From: Asterias rubens
Lineage: Eukaryota
Direction: 5' to 3'
Length of the DNA stretch: 64,000 nt
Assembly (NCBI RefSeq): GCF_902459465.1
Contig: NC_047076.1
Coordinates: forward strand, 9,176,001 to 9,240,000
The stretch's first letter is position 1; every line of letters starts with the position of its first letter. This document shows, in pieces, positions 41,481-64,000 of the stretch. The position numbers and the translations under genes were made by a program. Under the pieces are notes generated by a model. It did not search any database, was not told the DNA's origin, and saw nothing but the letters and a program-made list of their open reading frames with translations.

Positions 41481-41607
41481 TTCAGCTGAATACAGTGTCT
41501 ATTTGTTGAAAAAACTGGGGGAAAACTGTTATAGTATTTTCATAAATAGAATGTTGAATTCAGCCAAGTTTAGCAATGTGACAGTGGGTACCAACTTCAT
41601 CTCTGGC

Positions 41608-42009: not shown

Positions 42010-43400
42010 GCATGAATTAATGGAGGGTAGCATTACCTAAATGGACACCAGGGAAAGTTGAATTGCCAAAATATGCCTGGTGCCAATTGTAAAAGATTTA
42101 TCATTGTTCAACATAGTCCTATTGATATTTTAATCAACACTCAACAGGGGCACTTGCGCATCCAAGCATCGATGGTTGGTTCGATACTTCTTTGTCCTGT
42201 TTGCATTTTCCTTTCCATTTTCTACTGTAACAAATTTTGACACATTTTTTATTAATAAGTGATCAGCTTTGAAAGCATACATATTAAGTTAATATGCTGG
42301 TAACTTTTTTCACGCGCAGACAATAGTTGTAACACAAAAACTTCAAATGGGGGGGGGGTGAGCGTTGAAAAATCTCACGCAAAGCTGGCGTCTGGACTTT
42401 GCATCTCTGTAATGTGTCCATATGATCAATTTATCACTAAAATAAATGGTGCTTAAAAAGGGTTAAGGACATGAAATAGTTGTAGATAATTCTTAAAAAG
42501 AAAAAGTATTTTCACAACAGAACAATTGAACCATGGAATCCATGAAGATTTATTCATGAAGGTAGAAATGAATATTTAAGCAGATTAAATTTATCTTTTC
42601 TAAAACAAACTGAAAGGTGGATTTAATCTTTGGTATAAATGCCTAGACTTTTGACCCTAGCAGGGTCTCTCAAAGGTTGAACTGAAAAAACAACAATCAA
42701 TAGAAAACTGCTCTCATTTTTGTTCACATCCTTGTGCATGAAATAGTCGTAAAGTGTCTGCCTATAGGGGAACAGGTCATTGCTCATGTGCTTCAGTTGT
42801 CATTGCCCACACGTGAACCTTTGTGGTTTTGATCACAATCATCACAGTAGGCTCAGGATATTTACACAAAGCTTTGTAATTGATAATATAAAGTATGATC
42901 ACATGATGCTTTTAGTTTAGCTGTGCACCTGAACTCACTAAGGGGAGTAACCTTGTCCTACAGCACTTCATTTTCATTTCCTCATTCAAAGGCAGAGCAC
43001 TGTTTTGGTTTGTGGGAGAGTCTTGGTATTTGCGTGTAGCATTTGGTGTAAGTTTTGAATGTGTCTTTTTGTTCCATAGTCTACACTAGTTTTTTTACAA
43101 GCTGGGAACTGTACAACTAAATTGTGTATCACAGCAACTATATTTTAACAAGTATTTTTACTTATGTCTTGTGTGTACCAACTTATTTATAAGGCTGTTT
43201 TTAGTTTATTATTTAACAATTTTGATAGCTAGTTCAAACTGTAAGCAGGTGCCTATTTGAACAATAATGTGCATATGAATTTTTTTTTTTCTTTTTTTTT
43301 TTCACTTTTACCTTGATCATTTTGTACTGGTTTGATCAGGTCTGGTCAGTAATGGTGTATTTTTTTGATTGCCTTCTTTCAGATACCACCCGGATTCAAG

Positions 43401-43879: not shown

Positions 43880-43981
43880 GTTAAAAATGTTATCTGCCCT
43901 GGTAGTGCAAGCCAGTGTCCTGATGGAAACACCTGCTGCAAGCTAGCGTCTGGTGAGTGGGGTTGCTGCCCCATCCCAAAT
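43880..43981 (+). CDS. GRN: Granulin module 1, N-half exon (VKNVICPGSASQCPDGNTCCKLASGEWGCCPIPN)
   Basis: C-C-CC-CC pattern, AG/GT borders, 102 nt, phase 0. Confidence 0.95.
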
Positions 43982-44707
43982 GTGAGTGTGAAAGACCATT
44001 TCCTCTAATAATATTAATGTTGGGGTGATCATAAATAAGTGTGGAGAATGGGATTTGAACTGGTGACCTCCAGATTAACAGGCTAGTCTTGTAAAGATTA
44101 ATCTTGTCCAATTTACATTTTGAGTTCCCCCAAATTCGACCCCTTATCCTGGTTCTAGTGAGTTTGGGAATATTTTTATAGCCCTGCATAATGTCTAACA
44201 CCATGATAACTTTACACCAAAACTGCTGGACTCTGATTATGGTATGCCTGATTCCATGTACATTGTACATGTACATGTAAAGCATGATCAGATTCGTACG
44301 TACATGTAGTCTAGTGCAGTCTTCAATCCAGCAGAATCAAACAGAACATCCCGTTTGATGTTGATGGATTGCGTTTTTTTCTTTCTTTTCTTTGGGCACT
44401 AACCCCCCCCCCCCCACCAAAAAAAAAGAAAAGATTGCAAGACAATCACGAAAAAGGAAAATAAATGATATGTTTTGGATATGGGTAAGAAAACTTAGCT
44501 GAAAATACCCCAATGAAATTTCCGTTAGAGAAATTTTCCTCAAGAGAAACTTCAATTTACTGTTTCATTTCAGTTTTAGGGTTTTTTGTTGTGCAGTTGA
44601 TCCTGATCGCATTAGAGAAAACCTGTGTGCCAACCATTTTTTGGGAAATAATTGTATTCACTCGAGTAACAGGCAACTCTAATGACTGTACTTTTGGCTT
44701 TTTTTAG

Positions 44708-44836
44708 GCGGTGTGCTGCAGTGACCACACCCACTGCTGTCCCAACGGCTACACCTGTGACACTTCACAAGGAACCTGCACCAAAGGAGATATGACCCTC
44801 CCATGGGAGACAAAGAACGTCGCCCAACCAATCAAG
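44708..44836 (+). CDS. GRN: Granulin module 1, C-half exon ([43 protein letters not shown])
   Basis: CC-CC-C-C pattern, 129 nt, phase 0. Confidence 0.95.
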
Positions 44837-45309
44837 GTAAAACTTACAACTCTTTCAAGATGCTGTCCAAAGCATTTTTTTTCTTCAGCCAATGCTCTTC
44901 AACCATTGGTTCTTTTCGGAACCATCACTACTCAAAAGAAATTAACCCATGGTGCTACCGCAAACCTCACCTAAAACAATGTTCTTCTGTTTCAAGCTTC
45001 CAACTTTTCAGCAGATGTCCACCTTGTTCTTGAATATTTGTTAGGGTCATAGAGAACTGGAAAACATTAGAGTGTGGTTATCCACTTCCGTTGTGCAGAT
45101 AGAAAGCTTTCCACTTTGTTCTATGCTGTACCTACCGACAGACTTCTCTACCCCCTCCTCTCCCCCGTCACACCCCACTCCTACCCCAGATGTTCCAGAC
45201 AAACATCCAAGTAAATGGGTTTTTGCCCAGAACTTTCGCATTGTGAAGCACCAACAGTTTAGAGTTCTTCTTTTTTAATTCTGTTTATATTTTAATCAAT
45301 ATCTTCCAG

Positions 45310-45411
45310 GTTGAAGCTGTTATCTGCCCTGGTGGTACAAGCCAGTGTCCAACTGGTACTACCTGCTGCAAGCTAGCGTCTGGTGCCTGGGGTTGCTGCC
45401 CTTTCCCTAGG
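45310..45411 (+). CDS. GRN: Granulin module 2, N-half exon (VEAVICPGGTSQCPTGTTCCKLASGAWGCCPFPR)
   Basis: 102 nt, CAG|...|GTAAGT. Confidence 0.93.
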
Positions 45412-45615
45412 GTAAGTTACCGTTTACAGGATTCGAACCCTCCCATGTATGTAATTGTGAGTGAAAGCAAGTCAAAATCTCAGTTTGTATTGTTTATTTG
45501 TTTATTTGTTTGTTGTTTAGGGTCCTCGTTTGTTAAATACACAGGATGAATCAAAAGTTTTGTAGTAATTTGTCCTGGGTATTGAAGTTGCCTTTGGTTT
45601 ATTTGTATCATAAAG

Positions 45616-45744
45616 GCGGTATGCTGCAGTGACCACACCCATTGCTGTCAAAGAGGCTACATCTGCAACGTCGCACAAGGAACCTGCACCAAAGGAGCCT
45701 TGACCCTCCCATGGGAGACAAAGAACGTCGCTCGACCAATTGAG
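45616..45744 (+). CDS. GRN: Granulin module 2, C-half exon ([43 protein letters not shown])
   Basis: 129 nt, AAG|...|GTAAAT. Confidence 0.93.
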
Positions 45745-46171
45745 GTAAATCAATCGAAAGTCTTAAGTTGCATACATTCTAATTAATTTTGTCACAGTGT
45801 TTTCTACATGTATGTCAGTCACAGCATTATTTGTTTGATTGTGAAACATCAAAAGTTAGGAAGAAGTTAGGAAGAAGTTTTTTAACAGATTGTTACGACG
45901 TCCACTCCTTTTGAACACAGTTTCAGCCCGTCCCGCTTATATATTTTTTTTTCAGAACAAAGTGAGCCATGTTTGGTGTGATGGGCTTGAATTAAGTTCT
46001 AAATCAGAGTTTGAGAATCTTTTGTTTTCTTACTGTCTCTGTAACTGGTCTCGATAGGGTGACATACTGCCCAGAACTTTTGTTTCACTTTGTGAAGCAT
46101 CCACACGTCAGAGTTCTCCCAAAACTCCTGTTTTTTTTAATTGTGTTTATGTTTTAATCAATGTCTTCCAG

Positions 46172-46273
46172 GTTGAAGCTGTTATCTGCCCTGGTGGTAC
46201 AAGCCAGTGTCCAACTGGTACTACCTGCTGCAAGCTAGCGTCTGGTGCCTGGGGTTGCTGCCCTTTCCCTAGG
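46172..46273 (+). CDS. GRN: Granulin module 3, N-half exon
   Basis: Copy of 45310-45411 at an 862-bp period. Confidence 0.92.
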
Positions 46274-46477
46274 GTAAGTTACCGTTTACAGGATTCGAAC
46301 CCTCCCATGTATGTAATTGTGAGTGGAGGCAAGTCAAAATCTCAGTTTGTATTGTTTATTTGTTTATTTGTTTGTTGTTTAGGGTCCTCGTTTGTTAAAT
46401 ACACAGGATGAATCAAAAGTTTTGTAGTAATTTGTCCTGGGTATTGAAGTTGCCTTTGGTTTATTTGTATCATAAAG

Positions 46478-46606
46478 GCGGTATGCTGCAGTGACCACAC
46501 CCATTGCTGTCAAAGAGGCTACATCTGCAACGTCGCACAAGGAACCTGCACCAAAGGAGCCTTGACCCTCCCATGGGAGACAAAGAACGTCGCTCGACCA
46601 ATTGAG
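46478..46606 (+). CDS. GRN: Granulin module 3, C-half exon
   Basis: Copy of 45616-45744. Confidence 0.92.
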
Positions 46607-47045
46607 GTAAATCAATCGAAGTTCTTAAGTTGCATACATTCTAATTAATTTTGTCACAGTGTTTTCTACACGTATGTCAGTCACAGCATTATTTGTTTGA
46701 TTGTGAAACATCAAAAAGTTAGGAAGAAGTTAGAAAGAAGTTTTTTAACAGATTGTTGACAGTTGCTACGACGTCCACTCCTTTTGAACACAGTTTCAGC
46801 CCGTCCCGCTTATATATTTTTTTTTCAGAACAAAGTGAGCCATGTTTGGTGTGATGGGCTTTAATTAAGTTACAAATCAGAGTTTGAGAATCTTTTGTTT
46901 TCTTACTGTCTCTGTAACTGGTGTCGATAGGGTGACATACTGCCCAGAACTTTTTGTTTCACTTTGTGAAGCATCCACACTTCAGAGTTCTCCCAAAACT
47001 CCTGTTTTTTTTTATTGTGTTTATGTTTTAATCAATATCTTCCAG

Positions 47046-47147
47046 GTTGAAGCTGTTATCTGCCCTGGTGGTACAAGCCAGTGTCCAACTGGTACTACCT
47101 GCTGCAAGCTAGCGTCTGGTGCCTGGGGTTGCTGCCCTTTCCCTAAG
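47046..47147 (+). CDS. GRN: Granulin module 4, N-half exon (ends PFPK)
   Basis: 102 nt, intact splice sites. Confidence 0.92.
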
Positions 47148-47329
47148 GTAAGTTACCGTTTACAGGATTCGAACCCTCCCATGATTTTTGAGTGGAGGCT
47201 AGTCAAAATCTCAGTTTGTATTGTTTATTTGTTTATTTGTTTGTTGTTTAGGGTCCTCGTTTGTTAAAGACACATTGATGAAGCAAATTTTTTGATTGAA
47301 GTTACCTTTGGTTTATTTGTATCATAAAG

Positions 47330-47458
47330 GCGGTATGCTGCAGTGACCACACCCATTGCTGTCAAAATGGCTACATCTGCAACGTCGCACAAGGAACCTG
47401 CACCAAAGGAGCCTTGACCCTCCCATGGGAGACAAAGAACGTCGCTCGACCAATTGAG
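47330..47458 (+). CDS. GRN: Granulin module 4, C-half exon (CCQNGY variant)
   Basis: 129 nt, intact splice sites. Confidence 0.92.
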
Positions 47459-47847
47459 GTAAATCAATTGAAGTTCTTAAGTTGCATACATTCTAATTAA
47501 TTTTGTCACAGTGTTTTCTACATGTATGTCAGTCACAGCATTATTTGTTTGATTGTGAAACATTAAAATGATAGGAAGAAGTTAGGAAGAAGTTTTTTAA
47601 CAGATTGTTGACAGTTGCTACGACGTCCACTCCTTTTGAACACAGTTTCAGTCCTCCCGCTTATTTATTTTTTTTCAGAACAAAGTGAGCCATGTTTGGT
47701 GTGATGGGCTTGAATTAAGTTACAAATTAGAGTTTGAGAATCTTTTGTTTTCCTACTGTTTCTATAAGTGGTCTCGATAGGGTGAAAAAAGTTAGGAAGA
47801 AGTTAGGAAGAAGTTTTTTAACAGATTGTTGACAGTGGCTACGACGT

Positions 47848-48252
47848 TAATCGGCGATATCACGATATTATCGAATATCGCGGGTTTAATTTGGAAACGA
47901 TTTCTATATCGGATGGATTTGGTTTTAATCGAAATATCGATATGTCGCGATATATCACGATAATCGCGATATATCGCGATATATCACGATAATCGCGATA
48001 TATCGCGATATCGATTAAATATCGCGATGTATTTGCTAGCTGAGACATCTTGCACCCCAAAGGTTTGGAGTAAAACCAGAAGAATAGGTCAATAGAACAC
48101 CTCTCTTATGCTATGACTGTCTCTTCTACAACTTTCACTTGGAGTTTGAAAACTGATGATGTCAAATTTAATTAATCGCGATTATATCGAATATCGCGAT
48201 ATATTGTCGGCGATATATCGTGAATAAAATAAATCGATATCGCCGAAGCTTA
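47848..48252. mobile_element. 405-bp MITE with TIR (TAAGC)TTCGGCGATATC and internal CGATAT-rich repeats
   Basis: Absent from sister intron copies (empty site ...CTACGACGTCCACTCC); flanks ACGT (47844) and ACGC (48253). Confidence 0.8.
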
Positions 48253-48479
48253 ACGCCCACTCCTTTTGAACACAGTTTCAGCCCGTCCCGCTTATTTATT
48301 ATTTTTCAGAACAAAGTGAGCCATGTTTGGTGTGATGGGCTTGAATTAAGTTACAAATCAGAGTTTGAGAATCTTTTGTTTTCTTACTGTCTCTGTAACT
48401 GGTCTCTATAGGGTGACATACTGCCCAGAACTTTTGTTTCGCTTTGTGAAGCACCCACACTTCAGAGTTCTCCCAAAAC

Positions 48480-50052
48480 CAGGCCTCGACCTCTACAGCG
48501 GCCACCAGCGGCCATTGCCGCGATTGCCGCGATGCCCCAGCGAATTGCCGTGAAGCCCTTTTACAAATCACGTACCCTTTTCCATTGATTCCATAAAATT
48601 ATTTATTCGAAAATGTTATTTAATGTTAACATTGTGACCCATTTAATTTATATGGAGGTACAATTCGGAACATACGACGATCCCGCACACTACTAGTTTT
48701 CACAATGCTGCTTCTGTGCAATAAAAAATGTGTCGAGAACGTGGCATGGTAACCATATCAAACGTAGTTGAGCTGTTTACTACTAATAACGCAGCACCAG
48801 ACTACTCCAATGTATAAACTCGCTACAAGTCCCTACGCTAAATTACTCATTTTCGCACTGATTTTGTCTACTGAGATCTGTATTTGTAGCGGATGGGGCG
48901 GGGGAGGCGTGCGGCCAGGGGCTGGATACAGTCTATGTTTTTCCCCATGCTACTTCGCTGGTGTCCAAGGCTTGTACTGGATTCTTGTTTGAGACCCACC
49001 ACTACCAGTGATCTGCCTGCCTTGCTTGCGACTTTGTTTTTCATTGCCAAACACATGTTTGTGTACACACAACAAGCGTGGAATTGTAAAACGTCAAAAT
49101 CGGATTATATGGAGGTAACGGCAGAGCCCTAATTTTGAAAATCTTCATACTCCATCAAGTTCATTATTGATTAATCAGCTTGCCATCCCACAAAAGATGC
49201 AAAAATAAGAAGGAAGGCGAAAGGGCTGGAGTGGCAGCAAAGTGCCAACTTTAGAAGCATTTTTTAATTAGGTGCGTTTGTTTACATTTTTATAGTATTT
49301 ATTTAGCGCAGTCTAGACTCTAGCGTGGCATAAACGCGCATGCATAATACAACTTACAAGTTTAGCTAAATGCAAGGCCAATTATTTTGTGCTAAGGGGT
49401 TGGGGGTTTCGCTTTTAATTTTCATAATCATATTTATATAAAAAAAAGAAGGAAACAAAAAGAAACAAATATTTTTCCAAATCATCGGATTTAGCTGAGC
49501 CTCCGGGTTGTTGGTGGGTTGTTGGCGTGGGGTGGGTGGGGCTCGTTTGTCTCGCAGAGTTGGGGTAGTGGTGAGCCAGAGACTTATTGACCTTTTTTCT
49601 TTAGATTAGCACGCAGGGAATTAATTTTCTGTATGATTTTTTTTAAACAATTCTTTGTACTGGAGCAATGATATGTTTTCAGATGAGCAGAAGGAAGTTA
49701 AATTAAGTCGAAGAAAAAGGGGAGGGGGGTAAAATGGGGTAAGTTAATTACTGGGGTAATAGTTTTCAATTCGAGTGCTGCAAAAAAACTGTAAATAATT
49801 CAGAAACAAATATTTTAAAACTTTTATTCAATTTCAGTTGCACAGCATGTTAACAGCGACAATGAAATAAATATGGGTTGGAAAGTTGACCACCATCTTG
49901 TAATCAGTGGAAAGTATAATAACATAATCATCAACAAATAAAGGATTGAAAATGGCCTTGGTGCCCTTTCAGATGGCCTTGGTGCCCCTTTCCTTTTTAG
50001 AGCTTTTGAGGCCAAGTGGGCTTGCCCCTCTGAAGCTAAAGGTTGAGGCCTG
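48480..50052. mobile_element. 1573-bp non-autonomous hAT-like DNA transposon
   Basis: TIR CAGGCCTC(G/A)ACCT(C/T)TA; CAAAAC duplicated at 48474-48479 and 50053-50058; the empty site is visible in sister units; no transposase ORF. Confidence 0.8.
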
Positions 50053-50102
50053 CAAAACTCCTGTTTTTTAATTCGGTTTATATTTTAATCAATATCTTCC
50101 AG

Positions 50103-50204
50103 GTTGAAGCTGTTATCTGCCCTGGTGGTACAAGCCAGTGTCCAACTGGTACTACCTGCTGCAAGCTAGCGTCTGGTGCCTGGGGTTGCTGCCCTTTCCC
50201 TAGG
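50103..50204 (+). CDS. GRN: Granulin module 5, N-half exon (ends PFPR)
   Basis: 102 nt, intact splice sites. Confidence 0.92.
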
Positions 50205-50391
50205 GTAAGTTACCGTTTACAGGATTCGAACCCTCCCATGTATGTAATTGTGAGTGGAGGCAAGTCAAAATCTCAGTTTGTATTGTTTATTTGTTTATTT
50301 GTTTGTTGTTTAGGGTCCTCGTTTGTCAAAGACACATTGATGAAGCAAATTTTTTTATTGAAGTAACCTTTGGTTTATTTGTATCATAAAG

Positions 50392-50520
50392 GCGGTATGC
50401 TGCAGTGACCACACCCATTGCTGTCAAAATGGCTACATCTGCAACGTTGCACAAGGAACCTGCACCAAAGGAGCCTTGACCCTCCCATGGGAGACAAAGA
50501 ACGTCGCTCGACCAATTGAG
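50392..50520 (+). CDS. GRN: Granulin module 5, C-half exon (CCQNGY variant)
   Basis: 129 nt, intact splice sites. Confidence 0.92.
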
Positions 50521-50959
50521 GTAAATCAATCGAAGTTCTTAAGTTGCATACATTCTAATTAATTTTGTCACAGTGTTTTCTACATGTATGTCAGTCACAG
50601 CATTATTTGTTTGATTGTGAAACATTAAAAAGATAGGAAGAAGTTGGGAAGAATTTGTTTAACAGATTGTTGACAGTTGCTACGACGTCCACTCCTTTTG
50701 AACACAGTTTCAGCCCGTCCCGCTTATTATTTTTTTTTTCAGAACAAAGTGAGCCATGTTTGGTGTGATTGGCTTGAATTAAGTTCTTAATCAGAGTTTG
50801 AGAATCTTTTGTTTTCCTACTGTCTCTGTTACTGATCTCGATAGGGTGACATACTGCCCAGAACTTGTTGCTTCGCTTTGTGAAGCATCCACACGTCAGA
50901 GTTCTCCCAAAACTCCTGTTTTTTTTAATTGTGTTTATGTTTTAATCAATGTCTTCCAG

Positions 50960-51061
50960 GTTGAAGCTGTTATCTGCCCTGGTGGTACAAGCCAGTGTCC
51001 AACTGGTACTACCTGCTGCAAGCTAGCGTCTGGTGCCTGGGGTTGCTGCCCTTTCCCTAAG
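50960..51061 (+). CDS. GRN: Granulin module 6, N-half exon (ends PFPK)
   Basis: 102 nt, intact splice sites. Confidence 0.92.
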
Positions 51062-51338
51062 GTAAGTTACCGTTTACAGGATTCGAACCCTTCCATGTAT
51101 GTTATTGTGAGTGGAGGTAAAAATCTCAGTTTGTATTGTTGATTTGTTTGTTTTGTTTGGTTGGTTGGTTGGTTGGTTGTAAGTTGTTTGTTTGTGTGTT
51201 TGTTTGTTTGTTTGTTTGTTTAGGGTCCTCGTTTGTTGAAGAAACTTTAGAATGAAGCAAAAGTTTTGTAGTAACTTGTCTTTTGTGAAATGATGTCACG
51301 GTTATTGAAGTTACCTTTGGTTTATTTGTATCATAAAG

Positions 51339-51467
51339 GCGGTATGCTGCAGTGACCACACCCATTGCTGTCAAAGAGGCTACATCTGCAACGTCGCTCA
51401 AGGAACCTGCACCAAAGGAGCCCTGACCCTACCATGGGCATCAAAGAGTGTCGCTCGACCAATTGAG
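51339..51467 (+). CDS. GRN: Granulin module 6, C-half exon (CCQRGY...LPWASKSVARPIE)
   Basis: 129 nt, intact splice sites. Confidence 0.92.
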
Positions 51468-51950
51468 GTAAATTATTCAACTGTTTTTGCGTACATGCTC
51501 ATTATTCGGCTTTCAGTGTTTTCTATGTCAGTGAGAGCATTAATTTGTTTGGTTGTGATAACCAACATTAAGAAGGTTTAAGTTAGGAGGTAGTGCATTC
51601 TGCTCTACCAGCTAGGCTTCTAGTGGAAGATACTCATGCCTACATCCTTCATGTCTTAATGGATTGTGAAGGGGGTGTTCCCTTTTGCAGCCCTAGGATA
51701 AGGTTGCGCCATATCGCTGGTGGCAGGTGATTTGGGTCGACAGCCAATAAGCTAAGTGTAGTGCTCACTTTGTGATGTAAGTCGATATCTTAGACAGTTA
51801 GAAAAAAAATACATACAACAAATCTTGGGAGTACCATGTATGCGAGCTATCAAACATCGCAGGTTCTTACAATTACTATTGTTGAGAAAATAGAATTAGC
51901 TGTTGCAAACAACTTACCAACCAAATGGACCGAGAGTATAAATGCAAAAA

Positions 51951-52578
51951 ATAGTTAATGGCCTGACGTTTCGACCCTAGCAGAGTCTTTCTCGAAGGCT
52001 AAATGACAACACAACAAACATGAACAGGTAACTAAGTGAAACATAAGCAGTGAAGTGGAAATACATGAATGGGGTTAGAAAGCATACATAAAAAAGCAGG
52101 GGGTAAACAATAAATAGGGGGACAAAAAAGGGGGGGGGGTGAAGGGAAGGGGCTGGCTTGACCACAAGCAAGAATATGGAAACACAAAGGACAACATCGA
52201 GGGTGGTGAGGTTGGGTAAAAAGTAATTTATATTAGTGAATGAGGCTCAGGCTAAAAGGCTATGGGGAAAAAAGGAGACGGCAAAACAAAAGGTTTATTA
52301 GTCGTAATAGTCGTAAACCTCACCACCCTCGATGTTGTCCTTTGTGTTTCCATATTCTTGCTTGTGGTCAAGCCAGCCCCTTCCCTTCACCCCCCCCCTT
52401 TTTTTGTCCCCCTATTCATTGTTTACCCCCTGCTTTTTTATGTATGCTTTCTAACCCCATTCATGTATTTCCACTTCACTGCTTATGTTTCACTTAGTTA
52501 CCTGTTCATGTTTGTTGTGTTGTCATTTAGCCTTCGAGAAAGACTCTGCTAGGGTCGAAACGTCAGGCCAATTACTAT
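51951..52578. mobile_element. Penelope-like inverted pseudo-LTR remnant: about 262-bp inverted arms with a 103-bp spacer and hammerhead-like motifs
   Basis: 51951-52212 is the reverse complement of 52316-52578; CCTTCGAGAAAGACTCTGCTAGGGTCGAAACGTCAGGC motif; related copies near 14700-14820 and 42645-42680. Confidence 0.6.
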
Positions 52579-52796
52579 TGTTGTAAGGTCGGTAGTATTG
52601 GATCTTACCTAAATCTCAGGCCGAGTCCCGTTGGGCCTGTCGTTATACTGGAGAGCTAGAATATAGACTACTACACAGGATGACTGGTGGGCAACGGACT
52701 GCCGATGGCCAGGCCACGGGGTGCTGCCCAGCCACCGGTCACGCCCGACTGGTTTATTGCTCAATCAATAACATCATCAATAACATCATCACAACA
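52579..52796 (-). repeat. 3' LTR (218 bp)
   Basis: Direct repeat of 61686-61903; AATAAA on the minus strand at 52752-52757. Confidence 0.97.
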
Positions 52797-52805
52797 CTCT
52801 TCTCC
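52797..52805 (-). other. Polypurine tract (GGAGAAGAG)
   Basis: Purine run abutting the 3' LTR on the minus strand. Confidence 0.75.
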
Positions 52806-53198
52806 GTTTTTTTTTTTTTGTTTTTTTTTTTTGACAAAGGCATCTGTTATATTCAAAATAAACCTCGAACTTTTTACTTCAGGTTCGGCTTCACTTTATT
52901 TTTTAAACAAAAATAGCCAATCAATTGGTGAGAAAAAAAAAGTTGGATTACACCAATATATCAAAATTGCTGTCAAAATATTCCACTTAGCAACTACACT
53001 AATTTAGGAAGTTTTTAGAAACTAATGCAAACAAAACAAAAAAACAAACATCATAAAATACTCCTATCACATTTAGGTAAAAATCAAGAAGTTATAGAGG
53101 TCCAATTGTACATGTAATAGTTGTGTGAATATTGCCTACCAAAATTCAGTCTGAAAATTGTTACTGACAGTAATGCTTCTGAGATTCATGTTAAATCT

Positions 53199-54028
53199 TT
53201 AAATGTGAACTGAGTACATCCGCCTCGTGTTACTTAGACAGTGAAGCAAAACTTCGTCGACGACGACACCACGAACCTTTGCTACCTCGTAGGCAACATG
53301 AATGGCCATTGTAGGGTTGCTGACAAGGGTCGCCCTGGGAAAACCTCTCGGCACAAAGTAGGGGGCGTCGGTCTCCAGGAGGAGTCGCTCAAGAGGGATG
53401 TTCTTGGCGACACTTCCTGGACCTTGACTCCCCCAGGTGACAAGTGGTGTTAACCCGACGTATAAATTTGGGAAGGTAGAACACCACTTGCTTGCCGACT
53501 GCCATCCCCGGGTGAAACAATGTAAATGTATCTTCCAGTACCGGGGAAGGCAGTCAGAGACTATCTCGAAGCAATCGTCGTCAGCATCCCTACAGTGGAT
53601 TATTACTGGTTTGTTTGCTTCCCTTGCAGTAGTAAGGAGTTGTCGCAGAGTGGCTTTCTGGGCTTTACTATGCTTACGGTGGCATCCCGAGTAGTCGAGC
53701 CCGACTTCCCCCAGGGCACACACTTAGGGTGTTCCAGCAAACGCAGAATCACCTGGTGTATGTCCTGGGAGAATTCGCTCGCTTTCTTGGGATGCAACCC
53801 TACTGCTGCATAGATTAAAGGGTCTGCAATTAGGCGCAGCCACCGTGGGGTGTCGCAGTACACCTCTGGGTCGCAAAAATTGGCAATGCAACCCAGAAAA
53901 CCACTCTGCCCGCCTACTGCCTCCTGGCGACTGTGGAGATACCCGCTCAGAGTGCCAGAATATTTTACACGGTTGAACAGGCGGTCTACATGACAATGGG
54001 AGTCGATAAATGCTCCCTTGGGCTCCAT
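53199..54028 (-). CDS. TatD-family (TATDN2-like) nuclease encoded inside the retrotransposon, about 276 aa, with one 1-nt frameshift near 53717
   Basis: FIDSHCH, VGLHP, (A)LGEVGLDYS, IIHCRDA, LHCF and LLLETDAPYF; intronless; lies between the pol stop and the PPT; frame stays open upstream to 54361. Confidence 0.93.
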
Positions 54029-54410
54029 CACAGGGGAGCCCCAGGACAGTAGACGCTGGAGTGTTCTCCAGTGGAAGATTGAGGAGATGCGTTTGGGCTC
54101 CACCAGATCTCGATCCACCACTGGAGACAGGCCAACGAACACATCATACGAGTCCCAGACTGCCTGTTCTTCCTGCTGGAACGACGAGCGGGCATCCCCA
54201 AGACGTTGTTTGCAAATAAAGCTAAGTAACTCCGATGGCGATGTAACTCCCGTGGTGTCACGAACCCTTTTACCAAAAATACCAGCTGGGGCAGGTGTCG
54301 GCCTGCGTGGAAGGGGCCGTGTGTTCTTACATGGGTAGCTATTTCTATTGACTTTATATATTCACACACATATTTTTGTGTTATGGTTTTTACATTCATT
54401 TGTTTAGGGC

Positions 54411-57400
54411 CTACTGATCACGGAATCGCCGTGGTTGTTTTACCACCCTCCCACTTCTTGTGGTGTATGTCTGTGTGTCGGTGGGACCCTGGTGATTGGA
54501 GGATTTGTCACCCTGGCAAATCTGATTGGGTTGTTCTAGTGGCACATGTGCGTTTGGGACGAACTTTCCCTCCCCAAAAAGACGATTTCGAGCTCTACGC
54601 AACCAAAGGGGGATTTCCCTATCCTCACACCTTTTGAGCAGGTCATGATGGAGGACTTGTGACTTTTTCCTCCCTTGTACTTGATACAATATTGGGGAGA
54701 GAACTTTGGTCACCAAAAGGGGTCCCTGCCAGGTGGGTTGTAGTTTTCGGGACTGTCCAACCTTGAACGACTTGATTAATTTGTATACCAAATCCCCCTC
54801 ATTGAAAGGCAAATGGCGAATGTTGCGATCAAAGTAGTTCTTCTGCTGTGTTTGAGTTGAGCCAATGTTTTCCCGTGCAATAGAATGTATTCTACACATT
54901 CGTTTTCTTAGGTCCCTTACATAGGCATTCGGTTCGTTCTCTTCTGGACTACTAGGTGGTATATTGAAAACTAGATCAACTGGTTGCCTAACCTCCCTAC
55001 CCAACATCATAGGTTAGGGGTCATGCCCGTTTGTCGATTTGGAAGACAGCGAATGGCTGCCGTTAATATAGGTAAATCTTCATCCCATGTCAGAACCTTT
55101 CCCTTAATGTGGCATCTCATAACCTGTAGAAGTGTTCTGTTATAGCGTTCCACTTGCCCATTTGAACAGGGTCGATAAGGGGTTGTTCGTGTTTTGGTTA
55201 TGTCAAGCAAATCACAGACAGCTTGAAATAGAGAGCTCGTAAAGTTTCTACCTTGATCTGTGTGTATTTGCGTGGGGCAACATAACCGAGATATAAAGTT
55301 ATCTATAACGGCTTTTGCCACGGATTGTGCAGTTTGATCAGGGAGCGGGTACGCTTCTAACCATTTGGTAAACCGACAGACCAACATAAGAATGTATTTA
55401 TTGCCTGATGATGATGGGGTAAACGGGCCAAGAATATCAATATGTATCCGTTCAGTAGGAGCCCCGCATGATACTTTGTCATTGGTGCTTTTGCCAAGCG
55501 TGAGGGTTTTTTATATACATTGGTTTCCCTGCATGATTTAACGTGTAAGGAGACATCTTCAGACATCTTGTACCAATACGAAGTCTGTTGCACCTTTTTC
55601 AGGGTTCTAGTGATTCCTGGGTGACCGGCCATCTTGGAATTGTGACAAAGGTTGAGGATTTCTAGTTTTAAGCCTGCTGGAACCAACAATAGATATCTAC
55701 TTGAACATTCGTCGACCCACTTGTAATAAAGTACACCATCTAACAACTGTATGAGTGGGGCATTCGACCATAAGTATTTAACTGCCCTTGACTGGATTTG
55801 AAATTCGTTTGGTTGAGGTGTGAACTCGTTGTTTGTAGCTATTGACTGTTCTTTCCACTTATGCAATTGTTTAAGGTCTGGGTCTTTGAGCTGTAAATCC
55901 CTTAGCTGGCGATGTGTGTATTTGTTGGCTATTGATAATTCTTCATCCCGTATGTGTTGGTTACTGGTGTTTAATCCCTCATCATTTACGACCGTGGAGG
56001 CCATTCCCCCATCCAGTAAAAACTGGTTGGTCGGGTCCGGACCTTCACGGTAGTCCGAGTTGGTATCCGGGGCCGTCCCCCCTTCCAGCACAGGCTGGTT
56101 GTAAGAGTCAGGACCCCGGTTGTAGTCAACTAGTTCACTTTGTTCGTTATTTGTGAGCACGTGTTCTTCCCCCTCATCCAGTAAAAACTGGTTGTTGGGG
56201 TCAGGGTCCACGTGATCACACCCCCCAGTTATTAGCTGTGTTGGAATTGGTCCGCTAGATGTTTTTGACCGCGTTGTGATCTCGCGAACGGCTAGGGGGA
56301 TGACGTCGTCAACGTCATCCTCGAACCGTTGCCATTGTACGTGGACACGTGAACAGTGTTTGCAACCGCCGCATGGGAGACTTTCAACGTCACAACCGGC
56401 GTAATAGCAGCTGCAACTTGCAATATCGCTGGGAATACGAGAAAGAGAGTCTGCATTGGTATGATGTGAGCCCTTTCTGTGCAAAATGATCATGTCATAC
56501 TGACTCAGTTCTTCCATCCACCTAGCTAACATACCAGATAAGTTCTTAAAGCGCATCAACCATACGAGACTACTATGGTCGGTACGAACGTAAAATCTAC
56601 GACCGAGTATGTAGTGGCGAAACTGGCGTGTAAATCGCACTACTGCAAGGAGCTCCCTGCGAGTAGTGCAGTACTTTCTTTGCGCTGGGGATAAAATGTA
56701 ACTACCGTAGCCAAGCACTCGTTCAACTCCATCTTGGATTTGGAGCAATTCCGCCCCAATAGCAAATTCTGAGGCATCAGTGTCCATTACAAAAGGCTCG
56801 TCCGTATTGTTCCTTGGGAACGAAAGTACTGGGCTACTAGTGAGTGCTTGCTTCAATTGTTGGAATGCTTGCTCATGTTCGGTTTGCCACACAAATTTTG
56901 CTCGTTTGGTGGTAAGGTCATACAATGGTTTCGCTATACTTGCAAAATTTCTTACATGGGTTCTGTGGTAATTTGCCAGACCCATGAATTTCTCCACGTC
57001 TTTGCTAGAGGTTGGTGTCGGCCATTTTTGAACGGTTTTGACGCTGCTAGAGTTGGGTGAAATTCCTTTGTCGCTGACTAGTTTCCCCAGGAAGATCACT
57101 TCTTTCTGGAGCAAGTGACATTTTTTTGATTTTAGCTTGATGTTATGTGTTCGGAATCTTCCCAAGACACTTTTTGAACGGTTTTGACGCTGCTAGAGTT
57201 GGGTGAAATTCCTTTGTCGCTGACTAGTTTCCCCAGGAAGATCACTTCTTTCTGGAGCAAGTGACATTTTTTTGATTTTAGCTTGATGTTATGTGTTCGG
57301 AATCTTCCCAAGACACTTATGAGGTTCCGTACCGAATCCTCAAAGCCTTTCCCAAGAATAATAATGTCGTCTAGATAGGCGAGCACCTCGTTCCAATGCA

Positions 57401-58931
57401 GACCTCTGAGTATGAGTGTCATTGCGCGCTGGAATGTGGCCGGGGCGTTGCATAACCCGAACGGCATGCGTTGATACTCGAATAGTCCATATTTGGTGAT
57501 GAACGCAGTTTTGTGCATATCGCTCTCACCAAGCTCAATCTGGTAATAGCCACTGCTCATATCTAAAGTGCTAAAAAATGTTGTATCTTCGAGTACATCT
57601 AAGCATTCTTCAATGTTAGGTAAAGGAAATGCGTCTTTGATCGTTACGCTGTTTAAGGCTCTATAATCAATACAATAGCGGACCCTTCCATCTTTCTTTC
57701 TAATTAACACAGGGGGAGAGGCCCAGTCTGAAGAAGATGGTTTAATCACCCCTGATGCTAACAAGGCATCCAGGTGGCTCTTCTCTTCTGCCTCAAACCC
57801 AAGGGGCGTTCTTCTCATTTTTTGTCTGACTGGCCTGGCATTCCCAGTGTCAATTGAATGTTTAATTGAGGAGAACCTCCCTAGATCCATATTGTCCCTT
57901 GAAAATACGTCACTAAATTCAGTCAGGACATTGGCTAATATGGTGGATTGATCAGAAGATAAGTTTTTACTGGAATTCTGCCAGAGTTCAGCAATGTGTG
58001 TAGGCAATGTCTGCACCTGTTGCACAGTAGCTGCCTTATGCATGTTTTCTGACTTAGATCCCCTGTATTCATCAAGGTCTGGTAGGTCAGCTATTGAATG
58101 ATCACTAACTGGTATAATTTCGTCAACTTCTTCGGCTCTACCGATCACGTGTCCCCTTTTTAGGTGTATATAGCGATCACTATCGTTCCGCACTGTTATA
58201 AACAGACCCGTTCTAGCCGCCTGTACGGGGTTCGTGTTGCTCTTTAAAGAAACCAAACTATAAGGTATGCTCAAACCTTTGTGGTCATGTTCAGGAGCGT
58301 GTATCATGTACATCTTGTCTGTATTGTGAGTGAATTTGACTTCTGCAGTGACTACTGAGTTTGGGGGAACAACAAATTTCCGTCCTAGTTCTACTCTTTG
58401 CGTTGAGTACAGTTTGTGTTGGTTTTTCCTCATATCTGCATAAATTCTATTGCCGTTGATAGTGACGACATCACCTTTCAAGTCAATTTTGGCATTATTC
58501 GCTTTCAGAAAATCAAGCCCGAGTATGAACTCATCCGAAATCGGAGCAATTAGGATATCCCATGAGTATTTACTGCCTCCTATTTCGAGTGGTATGTTTG
58601 GAACTCTGTTAGCAACCATGTTACTAGACTTTTGCGCCCCTCTAAGTAAGACCTTTTCTATTGAAATGAGGGGTGGTTTTATTCGTTTTGCCAATCCCTC
58701 ACTGATTATTGAAACTTGTGCGGCAGTGTCAATTGTGGCGTGAGCAGGGACACCTTGGATTTTGAGAGGTATAACCAGACTAATTCCATCATAGTTAGAT
58801 GATACCTGCACCTCTCTTAGTCTGATTCCGAGGTTGCTTTGGTTGGACCTATTTGTTTTGAAAGTTTCATTGAAATGACCGTCACTTACAGCCGAACAGT
58901 GGTCAATGCGCCCGGCTTCTAGTAGTTTAAA
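54411..58931 (-). pseudogene. pol: Pol (protease, RT, RNase H, integrase), disrupted as assembled by a 146-bp duplication and two 1-nt deletions
   Basis: IDTAA (PR); YCIDYRALN, LDMSSGYYQI, MPFGLCNAPATFQR, YLDD (RT); DTDAS, RRELLAVV, RTDH (RH); HIDILGP, HTDQGRNF, NGQVERYN, WQGP (IN); frameshifts near 57170, 55463 and 55010. Confidence 0.93.
58876..58931 (-). promoter_or_regulatory. -1 programmed ribosomal frameshift signal: U UUA AAC slippery heptamer plus H-type pseudoknot
   Basis: Heptamer at 58931-58925 in gag frame; a -1 shift enters the open pol frame; 7-nt spacer; stem 1 AGCCGGG/TTCGGCT, stem 2 TGACC/GGTCA. Confidence 0.8.
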
Positions 58932-60826
58932 TGTCGCGCTTTACTCGCTGGGGACGGTGATCGCGATCTTGTTCTCCTACTTGGGCAATCGCGAGCAAAG
59001 TGACCTATCTGATTACACTCAAAGCCTTTATATTGCTGTGGTAGTCTAGAGGTCTGCCCAGATGGACTTGAGCCACGTGTTGGCGAGTTCGAGACTCTAG
59101 GTGGTGTAGGGGGTGTGGGTCTTGACATAGCGAAGGGTTTGGGTTTGGTCAAAGTATCACCAGTAGTCTCATGTGAGGAAACTGACTTAGGGTTTACCGA
59201 GCGGTTGGCTTGGGGGTTTCTAACATAAGATAGAATTTCACGCATGTTTTGGTTTATTTCAGACCAGTCCAAGTTTACATTGATCTTATCTTCGCCCATT
59301 TGGTTTATTTGTACTCGTCTGATCGATGGCAATGGATCATCATCAACGAATGACACATTTCGAACCCTGGGCCTTCCGGGGCGGGACAAAAGTTTGTGGT
59401 TGTGTGCCGCCGTTTGCGTAAATTGCACCGCTTCATTGAGTGTCTTTGGGTCTCTATGAAGTGCCAATTCGGCAGAATCAACGTCACTGCAGCCTTTTAG
59501 GAACGCCTCTCTAGCTAGGGTTTCAAACAAATCTATGCTAGCAGTTGGGTAGGCGCGACTGGCTATTTGACGCACGCGCTGCCCATACTCCTCTAGAGAC
59601 TCGTCTTCCCTTTGTCGGATTGCCGCAAGCTCTGCCCTTTGTATTATAGGGTCCCTCATTTTCCCAAACATTTTCATAAGTTGATCTTTGGTTTTGATAT
59701 AGCTGCGCCTGGTTTCTGGTTTCTGCCAGGCATAACAATCTAGAGCTTTTCCAATGAGTGCCCCAACTAGTTGCAAAAGTTTCGAGTGCTCATCCCATTG
59801 ATAACAATCAGCCATCACTTCAAACTTAATTATGAAAGCGTGGAAGTCACTTTTTCCGTCATAAGGGGGAAGCTTGGGCAATGCCAGTGACGGTGTCTTA
59901 ACAGTACATGTATTGTGGTTTAACTGAGTCCCAATTGCAGGTGGATTTGCGATTGTAGTTCTAGCTATTGTACCATACTCCGGAATGTTATTTGTTAGTT
60001 GTTCATACCCTGAAAGCCCGTGTGTTTTTTTAGCATACCCCGGAGGAATTACTGTGACTTGTTCCGCGGGCAATGGCTTTTGTGCGGCGTATTGGGGCAT
60101 TGTGGGGAGTGGCTTTTGTTGGCTCCCACTGGCCTGCCCAGAAGGGATGAATGGTTTTTGTTCAGTTGACAATGGCTTTTGTTGAGTTTGCTGGAGCTCA
60201 GTCAGGTTTGGCTTTTGTTCGCTATTGTCGTCTAACCCGTTATGCACTAATCCCATAATGTGGCTTGGAATTGGAGGGGCTTTATCCCGGATAACCTTAA
60301 GTGTGGCGTCTATTATGTGGTCGCCAGTGATCTGTGCAGTGGCGGGAATATGTTTTTGTTTTGAATCCACCATTAATGGCTCGTGGCCCTCCCCCTTTAA
60401 CATGCTTGTTATTTTGCTTTCGAAGCCCATGCTTTGAACGCACATTTTCCCAACAGCTTCGGTTATGGCTCCCATGTTTGATTTCAATGAACTAGTGACT
60501 GGTACAGTGTTTTCCTCCACAACCTTGGTTAGAATACTAATGTGCTTAGTTAGAACGTCCAGGCTGTGAATTATGTTATCTAGCTTATTGTTTTCTTGTT
60601 CTGGTTGTTCAGGCGAAATCAAGGTTTCGGTGTGTTCGAAAGAAACTAACTTCTTCTCGCTTAAATGTAGTTCGTGTAGTTTAGTTTGCAAAGCAGGTGT
60701 TTCGTGGAAATCATCTATTACTATCGTCCCTTTGAGTTCTTTCATGGAGACAATAGTTTGCGCATATTTTGTTCCAATGCCTGGCAAAGTTGTCAATTCC
60801 TTAAGGGATGCCTTATTTATGTTCAT
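58919..60826 (-). CDS. gag: Gag (635 aa) with an N-terminal ComEA-like helix-hairpin-helix motif, capsid-like region and mutated zinc knuckle
   Basis: MNINKASLKELTTLPGIGTKYAQTIV; LPPYDGKSDFHAFIIKFE..W; knuckle GFECNQIGHFARDC with the first Cys read as Gly (GGC). Confidence 0.9.
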   Translation of the reverse strand: MNINKASLKELTTLPGIGTKYAQTIVSMKELKGTIVIDDFHETPALQTKLHELHLSEKKLVSFEHTETLISPEQPEQENNKLDNIIHSLDVLTKHISILTKVVEENTVPVTSSLKSNMGAITEAVGKMCVQSMGFESKITSMLKGEGHEPLMVDSKQKHIPATAQITGDHIIDATLKVIRDKAPPIPSHIMGLVHNGLDDNSEQKPNLTELQQTQQKPLSTEQKPFIPSGQASGSQQKPLPTMPQYAAQKPLPAEQVTVIPPGYAKKTHGLSGYEQLTNNIPEYGTIARTTIANPPAIGTQLNHNTCTVKTPSLALPKLPPYDGKSDFHAFIIKFEVMADCYQWDEHSKLLQLVGALIGKALDCYAWQKPETRRSYIKTKDQLMKMFGKMRDPIIQRAELAAIRQREDESLEEYGQRVRQIASRAYPTASIDLFETLAREAFLKGCSDVDSAELALHRDPKTLNEAVQFTQTAAHNHKLLSRPGRPRVRNVSFVDDDPLPSIRRVQINQMGEDKINVNLDWSEINQNMREILSYVRNPQANRSVNPKSVSSHETTGDTLTKPKPFAMSRPTPPTPPRVSNSPTRGSSPSGQTSRLPQQYKGFECNQIGHFARDCPSRRTRSRSPSPASKARHLNY

Positions 60827-61673
60827 GATTATATTTGGTGTACAATAATCCTTGGGGAAATAGGTAGGGCCTAATACAATTATGTAACAAGAAAAGTTGG
60901 TATTCAAAGTATGGCTATATTGCCCGTCATTAAGCTATACTGCCAACGCTCCTGTCGCAATGACGCACAACAGGTTGACCTGATTGACAGTATTTTAACT
61001 TTGGTGTTTATTTTTTTTTTTTTTTTAACACGTATCGCCAAATTTTTATAAATGAAAGCTGACAATTTTTGTTTCGCTGTTCAAAATTAAAAGTACGTAC
61101 CACGCATGCAGGAATACCAACTTTATATTAATACAGTGTACATGTAAATGCAAAAATACAAGACGGAGATATATTGTGACTATAGGCTACAACAATTCCG
61201 GCAAAAGCTGAAAATGTTGAAAGCTATAACATACTAAAATTGAGCAGTATACAAGTATATACAAACATAAAATTCATTGATATTCCTAAGGTCTGTATGA
61301 ATGCATAAATACTTCAACAATTTCGGCGAAAGCTGATTATGTTAAAGGCTACATGTATATACTAGTTAAATTCAATGACGTACACAGACTACAAAAATTT
61401 CGGCGAACGCTGATTTTCTTGAAGAATATATACTTAAATTCAGTGAGATAATTGTGGTGCTTAACCATCGACAGCTTTCACCAAAAAGTAGATTTTTGTC
61501 GATGTAACTAATGATTTAATGTGCTATTAATAAGAAAAACCCCAAATTGCACAACTCCAAATGTTTTGCACTTGGGAAATAAATTAGTCCCGTGAATTCC
61601 TCACAGGGACTTATAATTTAATAATTTAACTACTGATAAATAAATCGCACGCAACTATTTACGCAACAATTTA

Positions 61674-61684
61674 CCTCGTCGCCA
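61674..61684 (-). other. Primer-binding site TGGCGACGAGG, complementary to the 3' end of tRNA-Ser(GCT)
   Basis: 1 nt downstream of the 5' LTR; metazoan tRNA-Ser(GCT) ends CCTCGTCG-CCA (recalled). Confidence 0.85.
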
Positions 61685-61685
61685 A

Positions 61686-61903
61686 TGTTGTAAGGTCGGT
61701 AGTATTGGATCTTACCTAAATCTCAGGCCGAGTCCCGTTGGGCCTGTCGTTATACTGAAGAGCTAGACTATAGACTACTACACAGGATGACTGGTGGGCA
61801 ACGGACTGCCGATGGCCAGGCCACGGGGTGCTGCCCAGCCACCGGTCACGCCCGACTGGTTTATTGCTCAATCAATAACATCATCAATAACATCATCACA
61901 ACA
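61686..61903 (-). repeat. 5' LTR (218 bp)
   Basis: Direct repeat of 52579-52796 with TGTTGT/ACAACA termini. Confidence 0.97.
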
Positions 61904-62601
61904 CTATCAAATTATATATCCACTTTAAGAATTAAATTAACAATGGAAGTCTATTGCCGTCTAGTGTCTTAAGGCATCCACTTTCTCCTTCATTTTTTTC
62001 AGCAACCTTGGTCCCATGGGTGCATCATATGAAATCCTCACCTCACTAACAACACGGTGGGATTCAGTGATTCACAATTCCGATTGGCTCCATAAAGTGA
62101 CTGATAATTTAACCCTTTGGTGCACAAGGCGGTCACTAGCGACCACCAAAAACACGTCAAATTGGACTTTTATTAGCAGTGTTAACTTAAAAACTACAAA
62201 CTTAAAAACACCCTATATATATCGCCCTCAATCGGTCGTTTAGAGTGAGTGTTGAGCTTTCGTTTGGTGTGATGTTCAACAGGGGGTGCTATTGGAAAAA
62301 TTCAGAACTGTATTCCTATATTCAGCGGTGTGATTTCTCCAACCCCCCCCCCCCAGAAATTTTTTTTGATTTAAATAAATTACTCATGAAAACATGAAGC
62401 TAGAAACCATATAGAAACCATATACTGCAGACGGACGTTTAAAAACCAAAGACAAATGTATGTAAACAGGCTTCGCGCTTGCAAGCTTTCACGTTTTGCA
62501 CTCACAGTTCATGATTTTTCAACAGCCTATCCAATCCATGTATAATGTTTAGTTAATACCTGGATGGTTGCCATGGTAACTCAGTAGCATTTTTGTTTCA
62601 G

Positions 62602-62715
62602 GATCCACAGGTCGAGACTGGAATAAAATGTAACAACCGTTACATGTGTAAATCGAACTTCACGTGCTGTATGACCACGACAGTGGGGAAGTTTGCGTGC
62701 TGTCCGTTGCCAAAG
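62602..62715 (+). CDS. GRN: Divergent granulin module 7, N-half exon (DPQVETGIKCNNRYMCKSNFTCCMTTTVGKFACCPLPK); the gene continues beyond the window
   Basis: Acceptor TTTTGTTTCAG, C-C-CC-CC pattern, phase-0 donor AAG|GT; an alternative acceptor at 62610 is possible. Confidence 0.85.
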
Positions 62716-62804
62716 GTTCTAATCAGTTTCTTTCAATAAATTTGGTTGGGAAGCAGTATTTCATTAGGATGAAAAGAAATTTAGTTCCCTATTTCGTAAT
62801 GCTG

Positions 62805-63158
62805 TTAAAGACACTGGACACTATTGGTAATTGTCTAAGACCAGTCTTCTCACTTGGTGTATCTCAACATATGCATAAAATAAAAAACCTGTGAAAACTT
62901 GAGCTCAATTGGTTGTCGAAGTTGCGAGATAGTAATGAAAGAAAAAACACCCATGTCACACAAAGTTGTGTACTTTCAGATGCTTGATTTTGAGACCTCA
63001 AAATCTAATTGAGGTCTCGAAATCAAATTCGTCACTTCAGACGGAGCCGTTTCTCACAATGTTTTATATTATCAACAACTCTCCATTACTTGTTACCAAG
63101 TAAGGTTTTGTGCTGATAATTATTTTGAGTAATTACCAATAGTGTCCACTGCCTTTAA
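62805..63158. mobile_element. Kolobok/T2-like MITE, family A (partial copies also at about 6115-6440, 6695-6775, 23414-23520 and 34246-34530)
   Basis: TTAA flanks and TIRs. Confidence 0.85.
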
Positions 63159-64000
63159 TAAGAAAAAAAGGATGGTATACCTTTGTTGATAAGTCCACAA
63201 ATTAATGACAATAAAAATGTTTCTTGGTAAGAAGCGCTGCAGCTGTTGATAATGTGTAATATTTTGAGAAACACTTCCCTTCAAAGGAATGTGGTTTTAG
63301 AGATGGAGATGAACATAAACTTCAATTTGAGAAACGTTTCTGCATGAAATTTTTCTCAGATTGTGTATTTCAGTTATGGATCAGTCTTCCTGCATGGACA
63401 GAACCGCTCCATATTTTTGTCCATATGAAAACACTGCCACCTTTTGAAATGAAATATCAACAGGGTAGGTTTGTTGCATATTTATTTTAACTGTAGGATC
63501 AAAAAAATTGAACAGATCCATAATAAAAAAAGTAAACTTATACTTGTCCTTTGGTTTAAAGCTAAAAGTTTCTTTGGAAGCCATTTAGAGAAATCAGTGT
63601 TTGGAATTTTACGAAAAAATGTTTAGCAAAGTCTTAAAAACCATTAATTACTTCTCAAAAAGCAAGTTTGAGGTAAATATTTTTTAATGTAAGTAGGTAG
63701 ATATTCTCTGGGTACTGTAGCTGGGGTGAGCTTAAAAGTTTTGTTTTTGTGGGGAAATATTTTATCAAATTAAGAAATGCACTACTCTATCATGTCTATC
63801 GATTTGTCACAATGCTACAATTTTCCTCGAATGGAAATTTCAGGCTGTTTGTTGCAACGACCAAGTACATTGCTGCCCCAATGGTCACGTATGCAATGAC
63901 GCTACAAAAAAATGTGACAAGAAAATGGAGTCACTGCCGTGGAGTGAAAAACTGGATGCAGAAGAATCGACCACAGAGGTTTCAATCATTTTTTGTTGTT

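Follow-up and report, generated by a model that had tools for sequence, protein, structure and literature searches.

The locus described here, from the sea star Asterias rubens, raises the question of whether a nuclease of the TatD type, found at the place of an envelope gene in a Gypsy retrotransposon, belongs to the permanent equipment of that element or was picked up by accident, and what such an enzyme could do for a transposon. Few accessory enzymes are known from LTR retrotransposons, and their roles are little understood; chromodomains, DnaQ-like exonucleases and helicases are among the accessory domains named in the literature (PMC6338049). The sequence under study, hereafter the window, is the whole 64,000-nucleotide stretch of contig NC_047076.1 (assembly GCF_902459465.1, positions 9,176,001 to 9,240,000, forward strand).

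The window element (52579-61903, minus strand) is a Ty3/Gypsy LTR retrotransposon, characterized by a complete pair of direct LTRs, a target-site duplication, a gag gene followed by protease, RT, RNase H and integrase in the Gypsy order, a primer-binding site and a polypurine tract (Table 1). The LTRs, with TGTTGT...ACAACA (TG...CA) termini, differ at 2 of 218 nt and are flanked by a CTAT duplication; the former count, already given in a preliminary description made from the sequence alone, was reproduced. A TTTAAAC heptamer occurs within the gag/pol overlap, and 37 pattern matches for tRNA-Ser(GCT) genes, one of them confirmed by ARAGORN, were found in the genome. According to the Pfam domain order the TatD sequence comes last, bounded by the integrase stop (54411) and the polypurine tract, which is the env position previously assigned to it.

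Table 1. Features of the Gypsy element in the window (positions of the window; strand as given).
Feature	Position	Strand	Remarks
Target-site duplication CTAT, left copy	52575..52578	.	
3' LTR, 218 nt	52579..52796	-	2 mismatches vs 5' LTR
Polypurine tract, adjoining the 3' LTR	52797..52807	-	comparable tracts in other family copies
ORF3, C-terminal part of TatD (GE, HCR, HCF, ETD motifs)	53199..53723	-	PF01026 E 1.7e-38
TatD motif ETDAP	53375-53361	-	
TatD motif HLHCF	53528-53514	-	
TatD motif IHCR	53600-53589	-	
TatD motif LGEVG	53714-53700	-	
ORF3 remnant, end of Cys/His-helical domain and N-terminal TatD (HxH, GLHP)	53724..54347	-	PF01026 E 2.4e-7 for the N-terminal TatD half; frame different from the C-terminal part; start and most of the N-domain missing
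TatD motif GLHP	53800-53789	-	
TatD motif DSHCH	54004-53990	-	
pol (protease, RT, RNase H, integrase)	54411..58940	-	four frames in the window copy
Perfect 146-nt tandem duplication breaking pol	57025..57316	.	
gag (N-terminal helix-hairpin-helix, capsid-like region, zinc knuckle)	58919..60826	-	PF12836 E 3.8e-7, PF03732, PF00098
Helix-hairpin-helix of Gag	60722-60826	-	PF12836
Structured leader element, two-stem hairpin, candidate pseudoknot	60925..60992	-	conserved across family copies
Primer-binding site, 11 nt complementary to the tRNA-Ser(GCT) 3' end	61674..61684	-	similar site in 7 copies
5' LTR, 218 nt	61686..61903	-	
Target-site duplication CTAT, right copy	61904..61907	.	

The element lies antisense between granulin-like exons, inside one intron of a host gene (43900-63900, plus strand) built of tandem granulin-like exon pairs, whose whole exon-intron units are duplicated at a spacing of about 860 nt. 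The insertion point coincides with the end of a MITE-like hairpin element (51947-52582) with 267-nt arms, 98% complementary, that shows a very high depth in all four read runs. Introns of the window also contain an insertion that is palindromic and rich in ATATCGCG, together with a second inverted-repeat element, likewise nested (47850-48240 and 41606-42011).

The intronless TatD ORF previously reported retains its position and its orientation on the element strand, but does not form a single ORF. The reading frame shifts near 53724, leaving the HxH half and the GE/HCR/HCF/ETD half in separate frames, so that all the metal-ligand motifs are present as announced, though split over two frames. 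The best term of comparison is a sister copy, C72, 99% identical to the window element (76 mismatches over 8010 aligned bases), which possesses an open pol of 1460 aa and a TatD domain readable in one frame but is 5'-truncated and carries a frameshift further upstream within ORF3. Compared to C72, the window element lacks 450 bp at about 54347, a loss that takes away the start codon and the greater part of the N-terminal domain of ORF3, and shows further small indels in ORF3 near 54261 and 54188; its pol is broken by the 146-nt duplication and by frameshifts near 55465 and 55011. Contigs assembled from two DNA runs, X2 and X3, either of which may be the source sample of the assembly, align gap-free across the site of the 450-bp deletion, and the X3 contig matches the window at 53338-53940, TatD frameshift included, with 0 differences and 0 gaps. 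Since these contigs agree with the window there, both the deletion and the TatD frameshift are present in the DNA. The 146-nt duplication, absent from C72 and skipped by the X2 contig, may be either private to the window copy or an assembly artefact. Among five close LTR matches examined, three are solo LTRs, 98.6-100% identical, each with its own 4-bp target duplication. The family has thus moved recently, while the window copy is dead and cannot make the enzyme. It is also a low-copy family, the window copy having in the genome a single near-identical sister besides a few solo LTRs. Three LTR-like repeats opened in addition (L196-L198), drawn from about 20 dispersed repeats with 80-85% LTR identity and a common boundary, resemble a separate repeat family.

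At the scale of the genome, at least 32 matches to the PF01026 profile were found, 6 of them located in two host loci that look spliced and 24 distributed over 15 intronless regions; the other 2 are weak and could not be placed. Ten of these regions lie behind gag or pol remains on the same strand, the Gypsy context that had been proposed as a check, whereas two show a family LTR and three are bare fragments. The origin of C2a as a retrocopy of a spliced message was considered and rejected on account of the sequence upstream of the acceptor that is retained in C2a. A pol tree was built from elements of this genome, with 150 of 391 integrase candidates scored; their identities fall either at 71-99% or at 50% and below, and 12 Gypsy elements picked from the lower set served as the outgroup. 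Nine family members form a 100/100 clade, and TatD follows the integrase in seven of them; the C6 member possesses a decayed TatD remnant, recognised by eye, and the C15d member the N-terminal domain of ORF3 only. TatD is found in none of the 12 outgroup stretches, six of which contain in its place an ORF3 of C2H2-like fingers. The C19d copy, like C15d, keeps the N-terminal domain without TatD, and it is also devoid of RT and integrase; because its LTRs are 97.8% identical, it corresponds to a recent insertion of a non-autonomous derivative lacking TatD. The ORF3 groups correspond to the LTR groups and define seven lineages; branch by branch, the pol and ORF3 trees are both largely unresolved between lineages. 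TatD is accordingly a clade-wide cargo in env position, as had been supposed, and other copies carry it as well.

Between lineages, the silent sites of TatD are saturated (pS 0.69-0.94) while pN remains at 0.19-0.54 among the comparisons listed; the corresponding pN of RNase H and integrase is 0.12-0.43, also among the comparisons listed, and the constraint on TatD is thus weaker than that on pol. Close copies behave differently: their TatD dN/dS, 0.3-1.6 and based on few changes, does not depart from neutrality, and integrase gives 0.76, which is the expectation for decay after insertion. The dN/dS survey foreseen at the outset therefore yielded constraint between lineages and near-neutral values among close copies; taken together, these two results indicate that TatD was under constraint during the active life of the lineages. 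Of 14 copies, 5 retain all ten of the active-site positions scored, and the others are truncated or substituted. Among the best 150 profile matches, 65 remote relatives have room for TatD behind the N-terminal domain; TatD is present in 62 of the 65, and all five motifs, under a strict pattern, in 33. Most catalytic motifs are lost in P0183, P0185, P0195, P0204, P0205, P0212 and P0280.

A neutral, one-off capture of a TATDN2 retrocopy from the host would account for the broken state of the window copy and for its TatD differences from C72, five of which change an amino acid and one of which is silent. This explanation has a negligible probability and was rejected, on the grounds that TatD occurs in seven lineages whose silent sites are saturated and whose amino acids are constrained, that it is fused to a domain which a scan of host-type TATDN2 proteins did not reveal, and that the mobile TatD does not group with the host gene in the trees. 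The host TATDN2 is a separate spliced locus on C2. In a FastTree of 166 rows, a single branch (98) unites the 107 rows that carry the domain or come from elements and separates them from the host-type TATDN2s; in an IQ-TREE of 30 rows, the mobile clade (100/99) and the echinoderm host TATDN2 clade (100/99) are distinct, and their union is rejected with p-AU 0.003. The TATDN2-like affinity noticed from the motifs is confirmed by these trees, as is the separateness of the mobile clade that they had been intended to probe. The capture therefore predates the radiation of the elements; it is old and is not derived from the TATDN2 of this host.

Members of the mobile clade were named in Patiria miniata, Asterias amurensis, Saccostrea, Crassostrea/Magallana, Ruditapes and Dreissena; the link to Gypsy elements is established in the A. 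rubens genome, and the other members are known from proteins. Those of P. miniata, A. amurensis and Saccostrea cucullata are annotated as 'putative deoxyribonuclease TATDN2', which bears out the suspicion that TATDN2-like gene counts are inflated: the counts in sea stars, and possibly in oysters, include transposon genes. The sole remote member available as DNA, a 2.6 kb contig (L190), shows no gag or pol within the 670 bp present upstream, a short stretch. This contig (L190:1-2624) is filed in a Sedimenticola MAG; as the protein it encodes belongs to the animal clade, it is probably host DNA rather than Sedimenticola. A 24-nt hairpin-like motif occurs three times around the gene. In a metagenome scan with 576 matches, the alignments of the best 80 were confined to the TatD domain (27-36% identity), and these matches served as a tree outgroup. 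Among the viral scans, one gave a prophage-like region with a bacterial TatD, another five weak matches, and the others nothing.

The full-length ORF3, visible in sister copies, begins with its own AUG; a disordered, acidic stretch is followed by a basic patch, then by a helical domain of 150 aa rich in Cys and His, and finally by the TatD domain. The N-terminal domain is thus the part of the gene that extends beyond the TatD ORF first noticed. The protein opens with a motif M-E/D-E-x-x-F-x-P-D-Y in 7 copies, preceded in most of them by a T/C-rich stretch and an AG. In 60 of 87 proteins, the 18 residues that precede the first Cys include at least four K/R, against a 15% background. A hydrophobic 19-mer above 1.9 was found in only 3 of 87 ORF3 relatives, and the glycoprotein with signal peptide and transmembrane anchor that typifies the env of errantiviruses is not recognised in ORF3, which is a TatD protein. 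With a threshold of E<=0.1, four full-length members match only PF01026, plus a weak PF04909.

According to its motifs (HxH, then GE, HCR, HCF and ETD), the nuclease would belong to TatD class II, of the TATDN2/TATDN3/YcfH type, and its TatD domain is predicted to fold as a TIM barrel (model of P0005 against 6L25: Foldseek E 6.6e-18, TM 0.92 by target). The 150-aa Cys/His domain is modelled with a pLDDT of 93.8 and displays invariant Cys/His positions. It has no Pfam match and no match among the viral structures of BFVD at E<=0.001; comparison with PDB folds gave no clear match (best VIA Z 2.7, rmsd 4.4, 91 aligned), and the scores against Atlas structures are all under 0.8. Its profile gathers 364 clusters at 50% identity, and this well-modelled unit has no family name. 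In another group of proteins (P0179, P0186, P0200, P0216, P0238, P0260 and P0292), which are long and possess ankyrin or B-box domains, the same domain occurs in 3-6 copies with no TatD.

Two further features distinguish the 5' part of these elements. In 7 copies the leader contains, some 100 nt upstream of the gag AUG, a two-stem structure whose internal loop is almost invariant, with 8 of the 20 pairs changed on both sides. In 6 of these copies, a pairing of 5-7 bp joins the terminal loop to the sequence immediately downstream, with co-changes, the shuffle P being 0.005-0.10 in windows chosen after seeing the data. This structure is a candidate pseudoknot that might serve packaging or translation; a search of Rfam returned only chance-level matches. 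The helix-hairpin-helix which opens Gag occurs in 8 family copies and was not detected in the 12 outgroup stretches, some of which may not reach the gag start; no literature description of such a Gag was found. The helix-hairpin-helix is a DNA-binding motif.

As to function, the analysis gives an even chance to the proposal that ORF3 combines a Cys/His domain with a TATDN2-type nuclease working in the nucleus on the RNA of the element itself. ORF3 would have a message to itself, in all probability a spliced one, and would not be produced as part of Gag-Pol, since ORF3s of retrotransposons are reported to be typically expressed from spliced messages (PMC5408684); two runs presumed to be RNA gave a patchy coverage of the element without a splice joint, and a strong conserved splice donor was not found in four leaders. 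The protein would then be carried into the nucleus by its NLS-like basic patch, a location made likely by the excess of this patch over background. There, the 150-aa domain, putatively metal-binding, would replace the long disordered N-terminus on which human TATDN2 relies for R-loop binding, and the enzyme could remove R-loop RNA or trim structured RNA 3' ends at transcribed copies, thereby keeping full-length transcription of the element going. The window copy would have been served, if at all, in trans. Against this reading stand the recent insertion of C19d without TatD and the retention of the N-terminal domain alone in C15d, the loss of most catalytic motifs in some remote relatives, the near-neutral dN/dS of close copies, and the sister elements that transpose without TatD. 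A nuclear R-loop or RNA enzyme is favoured because human TATDN2, according to PMC10711561, degrades the RNA of R-loops, with its N-terminal region required for binding, and shows minimal activity on plain RNA-DNA duplexes, very weak AP-endonuclease activity and little DNA nuclease activity, although it nicks catenated DNA.

By analogy with other TatD enzymes, the substrate of ORF3 could instead be DNA, and the nuclease might process the DNA of the element inside the particle or during integration, by 3' trimming, cutting of abasic cDNA or nicking of the target. TATDN1, TATDN3 and E. coli paralogues are reported as DNA 3' exonucleases and AP endonucleases (PMC10085689), and the nicking of catenated DNA by TATDN2 together with the helix-hairpin-helix on the Gag of the same clade point the same way; such a role is nonetheless unlikely, considering that ORF3 is separate with its own AUG (no pol-TatD fusion among 31 longer annotated matches, a weak test), that the element already owns an ordinary RNase H and integrase, and that the human enzyme has the limited DNA and duplex activities just cited. 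Given the minimal duplex and very weak AP-endonuclease activities of the human enzyme, and the basic NLS-like patch on a separate ORF, the processing of RNA:DNA intermediates or damaged cDNA suggested earlier fits poorly. Somewhat more doubtful still is an anti-silencing factor that would destroy small RNAs directed against the element, or the hybrids that they guide: a family with so few copies does not suggest an effective escape.

That the nuclease is kept for the benefit of the host, or is under domestication with the elements as mere carriers, is very improbable. Five of the 15 TatD regions have no gag or pol nearby, the C18a region has an open frame of 448 aa, and the N-terminal domain is also found in the repeated arrays with ankyrin or B-box domains, but C18a is followed by a family LTR and shares 98-99% identity with C15b, an element in decay, the ORF3 groups correspond to LTR groups, and the host already owns a spliced TATDN2. 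Nor is the enzyme necessary to Gypsy elements at large: TatD is dispensable for their transposition in general, because six sister elements with a zinc-finger ORF3 have near-identical LTRs and no TatD. Returning to the nuclear RNA enzyme, a broader view, held tentatively and at rather less than even confidence, would see in these proteins an old, animal-wide mobile TATDN2-like lineage, defined by its undescribed, putatively metal-binding domain, an R-loop- or RNA-clearing enzyme in the service of LTR retrotransposons that counters host silencing and of which dozens of divergent members, from echinoderms and molluscs, are filed as host genes. The cargo would tie transposon biology to R-loop metabolism, the reported field of TATDN2, a protein needed in fish germ cells (PMC12709183). 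Human TATDN2 was left out of the tests of one study for solubility reasons (PMC10085689), and the compact natural ORF3 proteins could be easier objects of study.

No description of TatD in a retroelement was found in the literature, although Repbase/Dfam or supplement annotations could already mention it, and the word 'tatd' occurs 0 times in PMC5408684 and PMC6238403; TatD is a real and selected nuclease cargo of a Gypsy clade, apparently undescribed so far, which adds a nuclease class to the list of accessory enzymes.

The closest parallel is offered by Juno and Vesta, LTR retrotransposons of bdelloid rotifers, which likewise carry in env position a nuclease ORF3, a DEDDy 3'-5' exonuclease, with catalytic residues kept and function predicted in both cases (PMC5408684). 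The two systems differ in their fold, DnaQ-like there and a TIM-barrel TatD here, in which DEDD motifs were not found, and also in the fusion of TatD to an unclassified Cys/His domain, in the spread of the TatD type over echinoderm elements and, by protein only, bivalves, and in the long-term constraint visible between its lineages. With animal TATDN2, alongside which it nests in the trees, the ORF3 TatD shares the HxH of class II, the other metal-ligand motifs and a barrel model that matches TatD structures such as 6L25; it differs by being intronless, inside LTRs and in a clade of its own, with a compact folded N-terminal domain in place of a long disordered one. The sister Gypsy elements of A. 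rubens also possess a separate ORF3 after the integrase that starts with paired Cys/His fingers, but theirs are canonical C2H2 fingers without TatD, and a kinship with the TatD-linked domain is not implied. In these young elements, which form a sister clade, the ORF3 (L173:1889-2806, L174:7402-8364, L175:7307-8158, L176:1870-2943, L177:1914-2729 and L183:1993-2697) consists of two C2H2-like fingers and a conserved C-terminal stretch, without TatD. Finally, the element resembles the other Ty3/Gypsy elements (Metaviridae) in its LTRs, primer-binding site, polypurine tract, target-site duplication, gag and PR-RT-RH-INT order, and departs from them by a Gag that opens with a helix-hairpin-helix and by an ORF3 that is a nuclease instead of an envelope.
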